64,000 nucleotides of DNA. Source: a virus. Taxonomy: Duplodnaviria > Heunggongvirae > Uroviricota > Caudoviricetes. The position numbers were made by a program, and so were the translations under genes. Below, piece after piece: positions 2,185-42,958 of the stretch. Where the stretch lies: the IMG/VR virus record IMGVR_UViG_3300021142_000006; one strand, 5' to 3'. Within the stretch, counting starts at the first letter, position 1, and each line of letters begins with the position of its first letter. The notes under the pieces were generated by a model. The model did no database searches. It saw only the letters and a list, made by a program, of their open reading frames with translations, and had not been told where the DNA came from.

Positions 2185-2814
2185 CTAATCCCACCAACTT
2201 TCTATATTACGTTCTAATAGCGTAAATAAAATACGCCTTGCTTTATTGTGTAAATAATATCCCATATTCATAGCAATAGTTTGTTTGGATTTATTATCAA
2301 AGATATATTTATCTGTCTTTGTAACTTCTTTATAGGCATGTGGATACTTTTTAAAGTAATCATCATACTTTTCCCATATCTCTTCAATCCTTAATGTTGA
2401 ACAATCCTCATACAATTTCCTTTTGTCTTCAGACATTTCATCAAGTTCTTCCTTGGTCACTGGATCAAAATGAAATTTTGATTTATGATAATCCATATAT
2501 TCGCCAGTATAAAATTCATCAGATATGAGCTTCATCAATCTAACACACAACTCCATTTTTTCAGCATCACGAACATTATCAACATGTAAACCCTTTTCAC
2601 GAATGTACTTAGCTTGGAATGTTAATTTTGTCATCATTACTTGCCATATATAATGGTCATCCCAGTCCCTATCTTTCCAAATTACAGGGAACCAACGTAT
2701 AATATTTCTAATGCCTTGATATAAATCCTTATGGTAATATTTACCTTCGAACTTCCACCACAAAAATATCTTCCTGAAGATACTCAGCTTTTTTTCATTA
2801 TTGTCAAAACTCAT
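2185..2814 (-). CDS. hypothetical protein
   Basis: 209-aa Trp-rich ORF ending in TAG. Confidence 0.7.
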   Translation of the reverse strand: MSFDNNEKKLSIFRKIFLWWKFEGKYYHKDLYQGIRNIIRWFPVIWKDRDWDDHYIWQVMMTKLTFQAKYIREKGLHVDNVRDAEKMELCVRLMKLISDEFYTGEYMDYHKSKFHFDPVTKEELDEMSEDKRKLYEDCSTLRIEEIWEKYDDYFKKYPHAYKEVTKTDKYIFDNKSKQTIAMNMGYYLHNKARRILFTLLERNIESWWD

Positions 2815-3026
2815 TATAGATTAATATTTTTTTTCATAAATTCACGAATATAGTGTTGTAACCCAACTTTTTCAATTAGGGCAAGCAACTTTTCAATTTC
2901 TTCATCTTTAATTTGCAAAGATACAATAAATTCATGAATTGAATTGATAGTATCGTCAGTGATATTAAGTTGTTTTAACTTAATTTTAATAGTTTCTTTT
3001 TCCATGGTTTTGGATTTAAAAAACAA
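2814..3026 (-). CDS. hypothetical protein
   Basis: short ORF whose stop overlaps the next start. Confidence 0.5.
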   Translation of the reverse strand: MFFKSKTMEKETIKIKLKQLNITDDTINSIHEFIVSLQIKDEEIEKLLALIEKVGLQHYIREFMKKNINL

Positions 3027-3050
3027 ATATAGTAAAAAATTTTGATTAAA

Positions 3051-3464
3051 TCAACATTCAGGGTTAAATATTGTTATATTATAGGAATTTGATCTCATAT
3101 TATCTATCTTTATATTTGTGAAGAAATAATCCAGTTCATGCATAACTGTTTTCTTCATCAAAAATGTTTTTGATAGTGGTGCATCAAAAAATATATAATC
3201 CAATGACCAGCTATTATTGATAAAATCAATACCACAAACAAAATATAGTTTATCTATGAATTTGATTAATGATTTAAGTTTTTGAGTTTCAAAACCCAAA
3301 AATTCCCCATATTTGTTTTGTGTGTATTCAACTAATATATGAAATTCATATATGTTAAGAATATAATAGTTACCAGAAAATATGTTATTGAATTTATTTC
3401 TGTCAGGATTTCTACGCAAAAATTTACGCATGAAAGTCTTATTTGTTGTATTAAGGTAAATCAT
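3051..3464 (-). CDS. hypothetical protein
   Basis: 137-aa ORF coupled to its neighbour. Confidence 0.55.
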   Translation of the reverse strand: MIYLNTTNKTFMRKFLRRNPDRNKFNNIFSGNYYILNIYEFHILVEYTQNKYGEFLGFETQKLKSLIKFIDKLYFVCGIDFINNSWSLDYIFFDAPLSKTFLMKKTVMHELDYFFTNIKIDNMRSNSYNITIFNPEC

Positions 3465-6600: not shown

Positions 6601-7601
6601 TAACTAAATTTATAACCTTTTGTTTTTTTTCTTTCACCACGAATAACCCTATAAATCATTTCTGATGTTATTTCTAATTCGGTTGTTGCGTCATGTATAT
6701 TTTTAAACTCTTTAATTAAAACACCATTTAAACCATACATTTTAACTGGTTTCAGAACTGGTGTTCTATCATACGCACCACGATTATGTTCCTTTAACGT
6801 TTGAAATATTTCATATTTCCTACTCAATCTCAAACCATCCGAATTATTATACATATTATTTTTTATAAAATCCAAATCTTCAAAAGAATAATATAATAAT
6901 TTACATATACAACCTTTTTCGGATTTATATTTGGTATATATAATTTTAGTATCAGTTAACCCAAATGAATTAAACTTTTCTTTTAATTTTAATATAAAAT
7001 TTTCAGAACCAATAATTGAAAACCTTAAAATACCTTCTTTGTTCATTTTTGATATTGAACCATCGCCATCAAAAACACCTCTAACAAAATCCCAAAAATA
7101 ATCATCATTAATATTAGGATATTCACAATCAAAAGATTTATTATTTTGTAATCCTAAACAATTTAAATCAACACACATTTTCTTAGATGGTATCTGTAAA
7201 CTAAATCTTTTATATGTTTTATTAGTTCTTTTATCATAGACATCATATTCACTTAACTTATGAGTGGAATTTAATTCTTTTCTAACGATATCAACTAATT
7301 CATAATCTTTAGATGTTAATACTACCTTAGACCATTTTTTACTAATATACCCATCTGATAATAACAAGCCTAAAACATATGCTTTAGACGATGAATTTAT
7401 ATTTTCAAAAAAAGTAATATTCATACTATTTTTACAGTTTTTAGAATTAAAATTTTGTTTTTTAGTTTTTATATTATTTTTAATTAAAAATTTTCTGACA
7501 CCAGAAGCGGTATAGCCCAAAATATCACCAACTTCTTTTAATGTTTTATTTTCCTCAAAATAAATTTTTTTAACCTCTTGTATTTCTAATTTCTTTTTCA
7601 T
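6597..7601 (-). mobile_element. free-standing LAGLIDADG homing endonuclease with C-terminal NUMOD1-like domain
   Basis: YVLGLLLSDGYI and FVRGVFDGDGSI motifs; KPVKMYGLNG..KEF...GYKFSY tail. Confidence 0.88.
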
Positions 7602-7649
7602 ATCTTTACTTTATTATAAATAGCATATAAAAATTAAAAGTTAATAATT

Positions 7650-8180
7650 ATGACAAAAAATTTAGAGGTTGTGACCTTTTTTGATTTTGATGGTTGTCTT
7701 TTTTCAACACCTTTACCTGAAACTGGTAAAGATATATATCAACAAGTTACAGGTAAACCATATCCTCATATAGGTTGGTGGAGTAAACCTGAATCACTTG
7801 ATATGGATATATTCGATATTAGACCAAAATCTGGTATGGAAGAAGTATATCGTAATGTTATGAAAAACCCAGAGGCACATGCTGTTCTACTTACAAATAG
7901 ACAATATAAATTGGGTGATGAAGTTAAAAAAGTATTGGATAGTCATAATATGACATTTGAACATTATTCTTATAAACATAATGATCATGAGAAGGGTGAC
8001 AGAATGTTGGAAATAATGAAAAAATACTATTCTGGTGTTAAAAATATTGTATTCTATGATGATGACCAAAAACACCTTGATAATGCTGAAATGGTATTAG
8101 CTGGTAAAGATTATAATCTTAAAACAGTTAAAATATCTTCAGATTTAGATTACCTTGATCAAAGCGATAAAATTAAGTAA
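7650..8180 (+). CDS. HAD-family phosphatase (Swiss-Army-Knife RNA-repair type)
   Basis: FFDFDGCLFSTP motif I, GWW, LLTNR, FYDDD. Confidence 0.75.
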   Translation: MTKNLEVVTFFDFDGCLFSTPLPETGKDIYQQVTGKPYPHIGWWSKPESLDMDIFDIRPKSGMEEVYRNVMKNPEAHAVLLTNRQYKLGDEVKKVLDSHNMTFEHYSYKHNDHEKGDRMLEIMKKYYSGVKNIVFYDDDQKHLDNAEMVLAGKDYNLKTVKISSDLDYLDQSDKIK

Positions 8181-8235
8181 TTTTGGGTTTATTTTTTATT
8201 GAACCATAGTTATATTTAAAGAAAAAAATATAATT

Positions 8236-9282
8236 ATGGTTCAATTTATTAAAACAGCATTGGTCTTAGGTGGCGGAGGTTTCATTGGAGGACATATTGC
8301 AAAAAAATTAAAATCTGAAGGTTATTGGGTAAGAGTTGTTGATATAAAAGAACATGAATATTTCATGGGTTCACCAGATTTCTGTGATGAATTTATTGTT
8401 GGTGATTTAAGAGACCCTAAAGTGGTTTCAAAAGTTATGTTTTCACCAAATCAAAGGTCTTTAGATGATAAAGAAAATTCCTTTGATGAGGTTTATCAGT
8501 TAGCTGCCGACATGGGTGGTGCTGGTTATATTTTTACTGGCGCAAATGACGCTAATGTTATGCATAACTCAGCCTTGATAAATTTGAATGTTGCTTATGA
8601 TGCTGTAAAATATAACGTAAAACGAGTATTTTACTCATCATCTGCATGTATGTATCCTGAACATAATCAATTAGACCCAAATAACCCAAATTGTGAGGAA
8701 TCATCGGCCTATCCAGCAAATCCTGATTCTGAATATGGTTGGGAAAAACTATTCTCTGAAAGACTTTATTTGGCCTTTAATAGAAATTATAATCTTGATG
8801 TTAGAATTGCAAGATTCCATAACATTTTTGGGCCTTATGGTACCTGGAAAGGTGGAAAAGAAAAAGCGCCAGCCGCAATGTGTAGAAAGGCTGCTGAAAC
8901 ACCTAATGGCGGTATAATCGAAGTTTGGGGTGATGGTCAACAAACAAGATCATTCCTTTATATTGATGAGTGTGTTGAAGCTGTATTCAGATTTATGCGC
9001 CAAGATTCCTTCTTAGGACCTGTTAATATAGGTTCAGATGAAATGGTAACTATTAATGATTTAGCTCAAATGGCTATAGACGCTTCTGGTAAAGATATTA
9101 CAATAAGTAATATATATGGTGAGGAATTTGAATCCAAATATGGTTTTAAATGTCCAACTGGTGTAAGAGGTAGGAATTCAGATAATAAATTATTCCAAGA
9201 AAAAATGGATTGGGTTCCATCATTCCCATTACGTGCAGGTATAATAAAAACATATAATTGGATAAATACACAGGTTAAATAA
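8236..9282 (+). CDS. NAD-dependent epimerase/dehydratase (GDP-mannose 3,5-epimerase-like)
   Basis: GGGGFIG, LAADMGGAG, YSSSACMYP, YGWEK, RFHNIFGP, KAPAAMCRK. Confidence 0.9.
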   Translation: MVQFIKTALVLGGGGFIGGHIAKKLKSEGYWVRVVDIKEHEYFMGSPDFCDEFIVGDLRDPKVVSKVMFSPNQRSLDDKENSFDEVYQLAADMGGAGYIFTGANDANVMHNSALINLNVAYDAVKYNVKRVFYSSSACMYPEHNQLDPNNPNCEESSAYPANPDSEYGWEKLFSERLYLAFNRNYNLDVRIARFHNIFGPYGTWKGGKEKAPAAMCRKAAETPNGGIIEVWGDGQQTRSFLYIDECVEAVFRFMRQDSFLGPVNIGSDEMVTINDLAQMAIDASGKDITISNIYGEEFESKYGFKCPTGVRGRNSDNKLFQEKMDWVPSFPLRAGIIKTYNWINTQVK

Positions 9283-18984: not shown

Positions 18985-19341
18985 ATGGCAGAAGAAACAA
19001 AAGCCCCAGAAACGACAACCGCTGAAGGTGGTTGGTCAGGTTTAAAGAAAACATTAATCGGTACACTTACAACAGCTATTGCTGGTGGTGGAGTATGGTT
19101 AAGTACACTATTAAGTGGTGGTCATAAAGAAGCACCGAAGGAAGAACACAAAACAGAAACTGCTGCGCCTGCACCAGCACCAGCTGCTGCACCAGTTGTG
19201 ATTAATCTTTCTAATAATAACACAAACCAACAAAAACAATCTGCTTCTGGTGGTAATTCTAACGCAACAGCAACCGCTGCAAAACCAAAAGAAGAACCGA
19301 AAAAAGAAGAAAAAAAGAAAGAAACAGATTCTCCTTGGTAG
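18985..19341 (+). CDS. hypothetical membrane-anchored protein
   Basis: single hydrophobic segment, Ala/Pro linker. Confidence 0.65.
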   Translation: MAEETKAPETTTAEGGWSGLKKTLIGTLTTAIAGGGVWLSTLLSGGHKEAPKEEHKTETAAPAPAPAAAPVVINLSNNNTNQQKQSASGGNSNATATAAKPKEEPKKEEKKKETDSPW

Positions 19342-25812: not shown

Positions 25813-25828
25813 TGAAATATAAATTATG

Positions 25829-25900
25829 TGGCTCGTACCAGGATCGAACTGGTGACTCTGGAGTTTAGAATTCCGAATGTTGCCGCTACACCAACGAGCC
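25829..25900 (-). tRNA. amber suppressor tRNA (anticodon CUA); amino-acid identity unknown
   Basis: GGCUCGU/ACGAGCC, GUGU/ACAU D stem, CGGAA-UUCUAAA-CUCCA, 5-nt variable loop, ACCAG-UUCGAUC-CUGGU; canonical spacing puts CUA at 34-36; only 3 of 5 anticodon-stem pairs. Confidence 0.78.
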
Positions 25901-25908
25901 TGATCTGA

Positions 25909-26238
25909 TTACATCAATCGTGAACCAGGATTACCCATTAAATCAAGAGTATCACCACTTGACGGCACCATTATCATCGCAGATGACATTATACCCATAA
26001 TTTTAGCTGGTTCAAGATTTGTTATAAAAGGATAAACCGAATTTACAAGTTCATTACAATCAATTCTGTTACCGATGTTTGTCATTACTGTTCTAACATC
26101 TTCATTTCCGAAGTTCACAGTTAACTTTAACATCTTATCACTTTTTTCCACTTTTTCTGCGGACGTGATTTCACCTAACAATATTTCAACTTTATCACTA
26201 AGTTCCTTGTAAGTATTGAAGTCTATATTTTTTTTCAT
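25909..26238 (-). CDS. tRNA-binding OB-fold protein (Trbp111/CsaA/MetRS C-terminal-like)
   Basis: GEITSAEKVEKSDKMLKLTVNFG...TNLEPAKIMGIMSSAMI. Confidence 0.85.
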   Translation of the reverse strand: MKKNIDFNTYKELSDKVEILLGEITSAEKVEKSDKMLKLTVNFGNEDVRTVMTNIGNRIDCNELVNSVYPFITNLEPAKIMGIMSSAMIMVPSSGDTLDLMGNPGSRLM

Positions 26239-26257
26239 ATATTTAATTTAAATTTAG

Positions 26258-26330
26258 AGTACATGGATGGATTCGAACCACCGAATTGATACTTTGCAGG
26301 CACCTGCCTTAACCACTCGACCACATGTAC
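26258..26330 (-). tRNA. tRNA-Cys(GCA)
   Basis: GUACAUG/CAUGUAC, U73, loop CUGCAAA. Confidence 0.9.
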
Positions 26331-26356
26331 AAGTTTGTGTAGTATTAATAACTACA

Positions 26357-26387
26357 CAAAAGTAATAAAAGTTTTTAAATAAACAAA
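26357..26387 (-). promoter_or_regulatory. Bacteroidetes-type promoter upstream of tRNA-Cys
   Basis: TTTG-N19-TACTTTTG. Confidence 0.7.
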
Positions 26388-26678
26388 TTATTGTTCAACT
26401 TTTCTTTTATTTTTTTGTTTTGCTTTCCAACCACGCTCAACACGAGCTTTATCCCTACGTTTTTTCCATCTTCTATCAAACCAATAAGAACCAAGCTCAT
26501 TGCTTATTTCTTTATCTAATTGAACTATTTTATCAAATAGTTCAATCTTTTGAGCATCAGTCAAAGGTGTTGGTTTATTTCTCCATTTATCCCTGTTTTT
26601 CATTGGGGTTGGATTAAGTAATCTGTGTACAGCATTACTGAATTTAGATTTGATCATTTCTGTTTTAGAGTTTTTCAT
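26388..26678 (-). CDS. basic hypothetical protein
   Basis: 96-aa Lys/Arg-rich ORF. Confidence 0.6.
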   Translation of the reverse strand: MKNSKTEMIKSKFSNAVHRLLNPTPMKNRDKWRNKPTPLTDAQKIELFDKIVQLDKEISNELGSYWFDRRWKKRRDKARVERGWKAKQKNKRKVEQ

Positions 26679-26917
26679 TGTTAAAAATTTTAGCGATTAT
26701 TAAATTATTTTCTGTTATTATTTTAAGACTTGCTTTGAATTTTATAGAACCCTTTGTACTTGGATTGTAATCCAACACCAGGTTCTACATCAACATGATG
26801 AACATAATAAGTATCGCCTCGACATTTAACAACCCACATAGGTACAGTAGGATCTTCGAGATGTTTCTTGTTAAAATGGAACGTAATTGGTTCCTTTCTT
26901 TCTGTAATCTACAACAT
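26665..26917 (-). pseudogene. amber-interrupted (codon 3) and frameshifted small gene (FHFNKKHLEDP protein)
   Basis: ATG TTG TAG ATT then ITERKEPITFHFNKKHLEDPTVPMWVVK..VEPGVG; plausible coding continues in another frame (NPSTKGSIKFKASLKII...) to 26665. Confidence 0.6.
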
Positions 26918-26928
26918 AGTTTTTAATT

Positions 26929-27282
26929 TTAATGTGACATAATTTTATTGTTTTTATATTCCTTTAATGCTAAAGGCAATGAAGACGTAACTTTGGAAGC
27001 CTCTTTAGAGCCTTCAAAAGCAATTGCGGTCATTTGATGACCAATATCAGGTTCGGTGAAATAAGAGACGGCTATGCCTCGCTCTTCTAACTTATTGTAT
27101 AATTTATGTAGCTTTTCTTCATTTTCAATGGATAAACAGATTAGAAAGTTATTATTCCATTGATTTGCTCGTTCTGGATGTTCCAAGAAGAACTGAGCTA
27201 AGGCATGTCCACTCTGGCTCATCTGTAAGCCAGGATCAATATCTTTTCGTGTTACGACAATTAATTTGTTAATCTACAACAT
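26929..27282 (-). CDS. peptidyl-tRNA hydrolase type 2 (Pth2-like) with in-frame TAG at codon 3
   Basis: ML*INKLIVVTRKDIDPGLQMSQSGHALAQF...FTEPDIGHQMTAIAF; the KLxVVxRxD..G.Q..Q..HA catalytic motif begins upstream of the Met called by the ORF track. Confidence 0.82.
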
Positions 27283-42583: not shown

Positions 42584-42958
42584 ATGAAAGAAAAATTATG
42601 TTCAAGATGTAAACAACCAAAACAAGAGTCTGACTTTTATCATAGAAAAAGTAGAAAAAATAGTGCATTTGGTATGTGTAAAGTATGTTTTAACTCTTAT
42701 TGTGTTCAACGATGGATTGAACGCAAAATAGACGCTATACATTACAAAGGTGACAAATGCGTAGATTGTTCTACTTCTTATCCAGAATATCCATATGTTA
42801 TCTTTGATTTTCACCATTTAGATCCAAATAAAAAAGATATGGATTGGACTAAATTAAGATTACAATCTTGGGATAAAATAACGGATGAACTTGATAAATG
42901 TGTTTTACTTTGTTCTAACTGTCATCGTATACGGCACCATAACGAAATAAAATTTTAG
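42584..42958 (+). mobile_element. HNH endonuclease gene inserted in tRNA-Arg
   Basis: CSRCK..C..C finger; CVDC..FDFHHLDP..CVLLCSNCHRIRH; antisense to the array. Confidence 0.88.

Follow-up and report, generated by a model that had tools for sequence, protein, structure and literature searches.

The tRNA gene with the anticodon CUA on the minus strand at 25828-25900 of a 64,000-nucleotide stretch of caudoviricete DNA (IMG/VR record IMGVR_UViG_3300021142_000006; this whole stretch is here called the window) probably encodes a working amber suppressor, with single UAG codons at the very beginning of a few small genes as its dedicated clients. The tRNA itself is a maintained gene. Two genes of the window, one for a Pth2-like peptidyl-tRNA hydrolase and one for a small protein called ORF-A, carry an in-frame UAG right behind their start. 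The UAG is conserved, no usable canonical start follows it, and tRNA and amber-led genes occur together in many phages. Many large phages with the ordinary code carry suppressor tRNAs that lack an assigned purpose. The window is 64 kb of a phage genome, and all window-wide counts refer to these 64 kb.

A maintained tRNA with the anticodon CUA

ARAGORN calls a 73-nucleotide tRNA with the anticodon CTA at 25828-25900 (-), and the Rfam tRNA model (RF00005) matches 25829-25900 (-) over its full length with 46.2 bits (gathering score 29, E 7e-8). The hallmarks of this family are present: stems of 7, 4, 5 and 5 base pairs, the T-loop GTTCGA, U33 and a purine at position 37. The acceptor stem is GGCUCGU/ACGAGCC with the pair G1-C72, the discriminator base is A73, and CCA is not encoded. 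The anticodon arm reads CGGAA-UUCUAAA-CUCCA, and its loop UUCUAAA presents U33, C34 U35 A36 and A37. A first-pass annotation, made from the letters of the DNA alone, had placed CUA at positions 34-36 of a cloverleaf and had seen two mismatches in the anticodon stem. Both statements agree with the tRNA caller, the Rfam score and cmscan, which marks exactly two non-standard pairs in this stem, C27.A43 and A31.C39, around three Watson-Crick pairs.

ARAGORN labels the gene 'Pyl', because of the CUA anticodon alone. tRNA-Pyl has a short D-loop, a variable loop of 3 nucleotides and an anticodon stem of 6 base pairs. The CUA anticodon is what the two have in common; in contrast to the compact tRNA-Pyl, the tRNA of the window has an ordinary D-loop of 7 nucleotides, a variable loop of 5, two bases separating acceptor and D stems, and an anticodon stem of five positions with two mismatches, which does not fit tRNA-Pyl. 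That it might be an initiator tRNA was dropped, in view of the G1-C72 pair and an anticodon stem that lacks three successive G-C pairs at its base. The window has 28 tRNA genes by ARAGORN, every one on the minus strand, and together they cover all amino acids but Lys. None of the 27 others shares more than 49 of 73 positions with the tRNA-CUA, which is therefore no recent copy of any of them. By identity, its nearest neighbour is the tRNA(UUA) of Lak phages (54 of 73).

The single-sequence fold is unremarkable when compared with shuffles (z -1.3) and thus proves nothing. The evidence for selection comes from relatives. A search of metagenome and viral contigs guided by the Pth2-like protein (alignment of 3 sequences) yielded 17 related loci, and a homologous tRNA-CUA was found in nearly all of them. 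When 13 distinct members of the family are laid on the cloverleaf, 94.5% of the cells pair, double changes are seen at 16 of the 21 pairs, and compensatory changes occur in all four stems. This covariation was reached by none of 500 shuffles, and controls with slid partners pair at 30-48%. A covariance model built from the family (R1) gives its members 65-96 bits, the tRNA of the window 81.7 bits and the best other tRNAs at most 68 bits; it also recovers copies in L004 and L058 that ARAGORN does not report. Simpler searches performed less well. An IUPAC pattern overlooked known CUA tRNAs and hit mainly tRNA-Arg(UCU), exact and blastn searches of viral-contig and phage collections with the tRNA of the window gave nothing, and a degenerate D-arm pattern retrieved the contig L003 only. 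The Rfam score and the covariation in 13 homologues make chance an inadequate explanation: the tRNA-CUA of the window is a maintained tRNA and not debris.

The two mismatches had been taken to suggest a weak suppressor in the first-pass annotation. This interpretation is not supported, as the same mismatches are shared across phage suppressors and enriched in them. Five regular anticodon-stem pairs are seen in only 4 of the 24 suppressor tRNAs gathered. Position 27.43 is unpaired in 10 of 13 members of the tRNA-CUA family, and A31.C39 recurs in L046 and L003. A mismatch at 31.39, be it A.C, C.A or C.C, is found in the window, L046, L003, XacN1, Myrna, Catera, three huge phages and the Lak tRNA(UUA). 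It affects 9 of 21 suppressors versus 6 of 179 other tRNAs of the same DNA (Fisher p ~1e-6), and a mismatch at 27.43 affects 12 of 21 versus 20 of 179 (Fisher p ~4e-6); both p values are inflated by relatedness, with at least five lineages involved. Because they recur and are enriched in suppressors, the mismatches at 27.43 and 31.39 look like a shared design feature of phage suppressor tRNAs.

Some of these tRNAs are not easily recognised. Gene 86 of Myrna (L001 2966-3037) and t154 of Catera (L002 3105-3178) are listed in GenBank as tRNA-Ser and tRNA-Arg, respectively, and are read by ARAGORN as CUA; their C31.C39 mismatch creates an effective loop of 9 nucleotides. CUA-type tRNAs with loops of 8-9 nucleotides (N-UUCUAAC-C) occur in LR756504 (L026 1485-1560, minus strand), LR745206 (L023 1462-1541) and LR756502 (L040 1182-1255, minus strand). 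ARAGORN reads one of them as a four-base 'tcta' anticodon and leaves the one of LR745206 unreported. Quadruplet decoding was considered for these enlarged loops and dropped, since every leader UAG is in frame under triplet reading.

Candidates for the inserted residue are Gln, Lys or Trp. Nearest-neighbour identity and model scores single out no parent isotype, the top other tRNAs being those for Met, Lys, Asn, Cys and Arg. There are a few leads. The common anticodon arm of the family, CGGU-CUCUAAA-ACCG, is that of a bacterial tRNA-Trp but for a U in place of C35, and the window's own tRNA-Trp has the arm CGGU-CUCCAAA-ACCG; a further resemblance is to the D-arm of the tRNA-Trp of L044. A73 would suit Lys. 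The Pth2-like gene of LR756501 contains a second, internal in-frame TAG (L005 20100-20102) where homologues mostly have Glu. Since the UAG lies in a variable leader, the nature of the inserted residue may not matter.

Genes that begin with an amber codon

The DNA of the window is in the standard code, and TAG stops are rare in it. Coding coverage by open reading frames (ORFs) of at least 100 codons is 0.839 in the standard code and 0.875 with TAG read as sense, a small gain compared with that of two TAG-recoded Lak controls (from 0.53 and 0.61 to 0.90 and 0.89, respectively), and TAG ends just 4 of the 73 greedy ORF calls, the other stops being 59 TAA and 10 TGA. With a rise from 0.839 to 0.875 only, these 64 kb do not group with phages recoded to code 15. 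The GC content is 31.6%.

The Pth2-like gene (26929..27282, minus strand) starts ATG TTG TAG ATT, with the TAG at 27274-27276. Its product matches PF01981 with 28 bits (cut-off 23) from 3 residues past the TAG, and a profile of nine homologues matches the Pth2 structures 2zv3 (E 2e-8) and human Bit1, 1q7s (E 5e-7), from their residue 2-3. The alignments to Pfam and PDB entries thus begin 2-5 residues past the TAG, which places the first beta strand between the TAG and the next Met; the next canonical start of the window gene lies 18 codons beyond the TAG, inside the fold. The subfamily is divergent, having PGYQ in place of the GKGK motif, and its assignment as a hydrolase is a putative one.

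The device is constant. All 20 distinct 5' ends of Pth2-like genes that we read consist of ATG or GTG, 0-3 codons and an in-frame TAG. They come from the window, 11 distinct freshwater contigs, LR756500, LR756501, LR756502, LR756504, LR745206, the mycobacteriophages Myrna and Catera as representatives of 206 cluster C records, and ORF364 of XacN1; the start codon of Myrna is GTG. In the AT-rich phages the next ATG, GTG or TTG follows 13-95 codons past the TAG, inside the Pth2 fold. The codon behind the TAG is ATT, ATA, GTA, GTG, AAC, ACA or ACC, often no possible start. The base following the leader TAG is always a purine (A or G), and a purine after UAG favours amber suppression (PMC6266110, citing Bossi 1983). 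The leader stop is always TAG, although the ORFs of the window end 59 times in TAA and 4 times in TAG.

ORF-A (26680..26917, minus strand) has the same beginning, ATG TTG TAG ATT, with its TAG at 26909-26911. This exact 12-mer occurs in the window only at 26906-26917 and 27271-27282. Wherever a relative carries ORF-A, by all tblastn hits, it starts with ATG, 0-1 codon and TAG. In relatives the protein has 81-88 residues and is 70-80% identical to that of L003; a fold model (pLDDT 80) predicts an all-beta protein. It has no match in Pfam, PHROG or Atlas, and a fold search brought up nothing better than weak OB/S1-like matches (best E 0.03-0.3). The ESM Atlas contains ORF-A only from residue 24. 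In the window, ORF-A is split over two frames near 26760-26766, where the conserved stretch GFSTKETPDNP is replaced and the frame shifted, while it is intact in 11 relatives. As contigs of two other metagenomes show the same sequence without an indel, this is no assembly error; the break is either a pseudogene mark or a frameshift site.

A third family is met outside the window. An HD-like gene of LR745206 (L008 20983-21573) starts ATG AAT ACT TAG ATT, 660 nucleotides past the amber-led Pth2-like gene, and its product shares 45% identity (E 4e-48) with the N-terminal 180 residues of XacN1 ORF364. The latter (L041 2440-3300) is a fusion of an HD-like N-terminus with a Pth2-like C-terminus, which suggests a joint role of the two proteins, probably at the 3' ends of tRNAs. 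Five codons before its annotated start, ORF364 has an in-frame ATG AAG TAG that the annotation lacks, which makes this gene a candidate target of the tRNA-CUA of XacN1. A scan of all loci for ORFs with an early TAG gave essentially the Pth2-like, ORF-A and HD-like families only, and in the window the Pth2-like gene and ORF-A alone combine an early TAG and no nearby start with a conserved domain across it.

Clients and tRNA travel together. In 19 loci the Pth2-like gene is followed, 0.1-2.8 kb further downstream, by a tRNA-CUA. Besides the window these are LR756500, LR756501, which has two copies, Myrna, Catera and every one of the 14 related contigs that reach that far. In LR756504, LR745206, LR756502 and XacN1 it lies elsewhere in the genome, in XacN1 as two tandem genes per terminal repeat (L060 1501-1659). 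These score 77 and 69 bits with the family model, within the range of the family, and have the same mismatches at 27.43 and 31.39. The Lak phages carry a tRNA(UUA) with A31.C39 at 0.6-0.7 kb upstream of their Pth2-like gene (Lak-B1, L042 19344-19416; Lak-A1, L043 19233-19305).

Of the genomic claims in the first-pass annotation, that of a standard-code phage region is borne out by the coverage figures, and the suggested link of the tRNA to two genes beginning Met-Leu-stop-Ile is strongly backed by the comparative data. The position given there is also right: the tRNA lies downstream of a tRNA-Cys and a Trbp111-like gene, at 1.0 and 1.4 kb from the two ATG TTG TAG ATT genes (about 1 kb had been claimed), and is part of none of the three tRNA clusters (14.6-16.1, 35.8-36.6 and 42.9-47.6 kb). 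The further idea that TAG-terminated genes could be extended fared less well. The ORFs ending at 19341 and 2185 do exist, as do two others ending at 42958 and 43604, yet nothing supports extension as a function: these four have no family matches and show no sign of useful extensions. At 2185, the base behind the TAG is a C, and the in-frame ORF of 65 residues that follows comes with its own ATG two codons further.

Proposed mechanism and its rivals

We propose that the tRNA-CUA is probably co-transcribed with tRNA-Cys and the Trbp111-like gene and cut out by the tRNA-processing enzymes of the cell; its CCA end, not being encoded, would be made by an adding enzyme. Its conserved clients would be the single UAGs 1-4 codons past the starts of the Pth2-like gene and ORF-A, which would not be ordinary stops. 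Without charged tRNA-CUA, translation would terminate after a peptide of 1-4 residues; with it, ribosomes would continue into the protein. The UAG being at the start of the gene, Pth2-like protein and ORF-A are probably made only when the phage tRNA is active. The output of both, and elsewhere that of the HD-like protein, would be licensed and capped by suppressor activity. As to the purpose, a throttle of potentially harmful hydrolases, a coupling to suppression by-products and a timer are the candidates; the one we prefer would be a licence or throttle of enzymes working on the 3' ends of tRNAs or removing the by-products of suppression.

Several points weigh against this proposal. Processing, charging and actual readthrough are inferred. 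Many of the loci are related, so the counts overstate independent events, which amount to roughly 8 lineages. The coverage of this phage is 64 kb. In Myrna and Catera a GTG directly follows the TAG, 7 nucleotides past GGAGG or GAAGG, and is the GenBank start; at this good spacing their Pth2-like proteins could be made without suppression. XacN1 ORF364 has an ATG five codons past the TAG, and in most AT-rich phages the TAG is followed by ATT or ATA, which could act as a weak start. Finally, the Pth2-like gene of Lak phages lacks an early TAG, and so does the canonical PTH2 of XacN1 (ORF295, 116 bits). The leader TAG therefore belongs to the divergent PGYQ subfamily of Pth2. For the mycobacteriophages there is an alternative to a start at the GTG behind the TAG: in Myrna and Catera (L001, L002 2440-2482) TTGACA, a spacer of 17-18 nucleotides and TAnnnT, read by eye, end about 7 nucleotides before the first GTG or ATG, and the Pth2-like mRNA may be leaderless, starting at the codon just before the TAG.

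Could the tRNA primarily disturb UAG termination in the host, causing extended host proteins and stalled ribosomes, with the amber-led hydrolases as sensors or antidotes? The clients are putative clean-up enzymes of tRNA and ribosomes, the Pth2-like and HD-like ones even fused in XacN1, the phage itself rarely uses TAG stops, and tmRNA genes are close to the module in L003 (1423-1861), LR756500 (L007 36899-37309) and XacN1, there within 1 kb of the tRNAs (2655-3075). This proximity fits a theme of ribosome rescue. Such an activity would, however, add a purpose to a suppressor with leader UAGs as clients rather than exclude it; as the primary role we consider it unlikely.

The main rival takes UAG as a true stop. 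ATG, 0-3 codons and TAG would be a tiny leader ORF, the protein would arise from the codon behind it, through re-initiation or as a non-canonical start, and the tRNA-CUA would do some other job, e.g., general readthrough of host UAG stops. The well-spaced, annotated GTG of Myrna and Catera and the ATT or ATA behind the TAG in most AT-rich relatives speak for it. So do two-codon minigenes such as bar of phage lambda, which are tied to peptidyl-tRNA drop-off and Pth. Against it, the codon behind the TAG is AAC, ACA, ACC or GTA in L003, L045, L047, XacN1 and L056; the stop is always TAG and always in frame, where TAA makes up about 80% of stops; the tRNA-CUA is present in every genome checked; and the device is common to three unrelated protein families. 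We therefore regard re-initiation as improbable.

Slightly less probable still is that the tRNA mainly serves TAG-containing genes elsewhere, such as partly recoded late genes, the leader UAGs being a side effect or an early step of recoding. Recoded phages keep their early genes standard and recode late and lysis genes, and their standard-code relatives of low GC are depleted in TAG (Borges et al., 10.1101/2021.08.26.457843). The window, with its low GC and few TAG stops, resembles the latter, 64 kb of this genome have been read, and the 735-kb phage LR756501 has the mentioned internal TAG in its Pth2-like gene. However, reading TAG as sense yields no gain in coverage in the window or in 40-kb samples of five huge phages, unlike in Lak, neither the window nor its close relatives showed a split conserved ORF, and the full annotations of cluster C mycobacteriophages and of XacN1 use the standard code, so that this reading does not hold for the cultured phages. 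That the tRNA-CUA is a decaying or non-functional tRNA-like sequence, as its two stem mismatches and its ordinary fold energy might suggest, is practically out of the question: the covariation in all four stems contradicts it, the same positions are mismatched in unrelated phage suppressors, and the sequence is identical in independent metagenomes.

If leader UAGs are indeed clients of suppressors, they are hidden targets, because gene callers start after the stop or at a later Met; GenBank starts the Pth2-like genes of Myrna, Catera and XacN1 after the TAG. A more general idea is tentative: the suppressors of standard-code jumbo phages might run a small portable circuit, in which a UAG gate at codons 2-5 restricts Pth2-like, HD-like and ORF-A proteins to suppressor-active cells, and in which a shared anticodon stem, loosened by unpaired 27.43 and/or 31.39, tunes the competition with release factor 1. 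If true, this would explain suppressors without visible targets and define a new class of tRNA-gated genes in phages of Actinomycetota, of Bacteroidota-like freshwater hosts and of Xanthomonas. Leader UAGs read by a suppressor would also be a minimal, gene-specific form of stop-codon recoding, possibly a first step to full reassignment of TAG. The natural pairs of tRNA and UAG context and the anticodon-stem designs may help genetic-code engineering, and the idea is testable in cultured cluster C mycobacteriophages (in M. smegmatis) and in XacN1.

Neighbourhood of the tRNA and known systems

On the minus strand the order is Pth2-like gene, ORF-A, a basic ORF of 96 residues, tRNA-Cys, Trbp111-like gene, tRNA-CUA and an ORF of 93 residues (orf93). 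The basic ORF (26388..26678, minus strand) is conserved, being present in 17 related loci by tblastn; close relatives all carry it in the interval that separates the amber-led genes from the tRNA-CUA, and it has no match in Pfam, PHROG or Atlas. The tRNA-Cys(GCA) (26257..26330, minus strand; ARAGORN, Rfam 56.6 bits) ends 18 nucleotides upstream of the ORF for the Trbp111-like tRNA-binding protein (25909..26238, minus strand; 109 residues; PF01588 tRNA_bind, E 2.3e-16, 60 bits vs 27). The 5' end of the tRNA-CUA is found 8 nucleotides past the stop codon of the latter, and orf93 starts 15 nucleotides past the tRNA. A tRNA-Cys directly before the tRNA-CUA is also seen in L003 and L050-L052. A Trbp111-like homologue near the tRNA-CUA is found only in L003 (59% identical), and 7 kb off in one huge phage. 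Contig L003 has four tandem tRNA-Cys(GCA) at 7559-8517, after the basic ORF and before the tRNA-CUA; A31.C39 is seen in one.

A pattern search found TACTTTTG, a match to the Bacteroidota -7 box TAnnTTTG, at 26357..26364 (minus strand), 27 nucleotides upstream of tRNA-Cys. Possibly, it is the promoter of a unit of tRNA-Cys, Trbp111-like gene, tRNA-CUA and orf93, a weak suggestion; the motif TAnnTTTG is not enriched across the window overall. The 33 nucleotides at 26356-26388, which lie between the basic ORF and tRNA-Cys and include TACTTTTG, recur with 2 differences in other contigs from two metagenomes and may be a copy of a repeated promoter or leader module. As to ecology, the stretch of DNA under study occurs in nearly identical form in freshwater and lake metagenomes of 17 studies from 2012-2018, and contigs from two of these match without differences. 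Two lake metatranscriptomes contribute one small contig each, X19 at 25882-26053 and X20 at 25996-26146; as RNA libraries may contain DNA, these contigs speak neither for processing or charging of the tRNA nor for a level of expression.

The laboratory amber suppressors of Escherichia coli, such as supE from tRNA-Gln and su+7, obtained from tRNA-Trp by a change of C35 to U, are elongator tRNAs with CUA that compete with release factor 1, as the tRNA-CUA of the window would do. In contrast to them, the phage genes are natural, conserved and phage-borne and appear to have dedicated clients, and their discriminator is A73 instead of the G73 of bacterial Trp and Gln tRNAs. An early or internal stop that makes the output of a gene depend on the state of decoding is also known from the release factor 2 gene prfB, with its frameshift at UGA, and from the programmed readthrough in Q-beta A1. 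Here, however, decoding would fall to a phage tRNA dedicated to it, and the stop is one of codons 2-5.

In full-text literature searches, no account of leader-UAG genes that go with suppressor tRNAs came up. PTH2 has been described from jumbo phages and from the tRNA arrays of cluster C, with amber codons left unmentioned (PMC7824862, PMC5966550). XacN1 is, like the phage of the window, of the standard-code jumbo type with amber suppressor tRNAs; its two CUA tRNAs were reported with the remark that no target genes could be found (PMC5852040). The TAG-recoded phages, Lak and crAss-like ones (10.1101/2021.08.26.457843, PMC9523058), likewise have a phage tRNA that reads UAG, low GC and few TAG stops, and in them, too, in-frame stops are thought to tie some proteins to the phage's own tRNA. 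Unlike them, the window region uses the standard code. Their TAGs are scattered in late structural and lysis genes, whereas here two or three small genes for putative tRNA-end enzymes have a single UAG each, within their first five codons.

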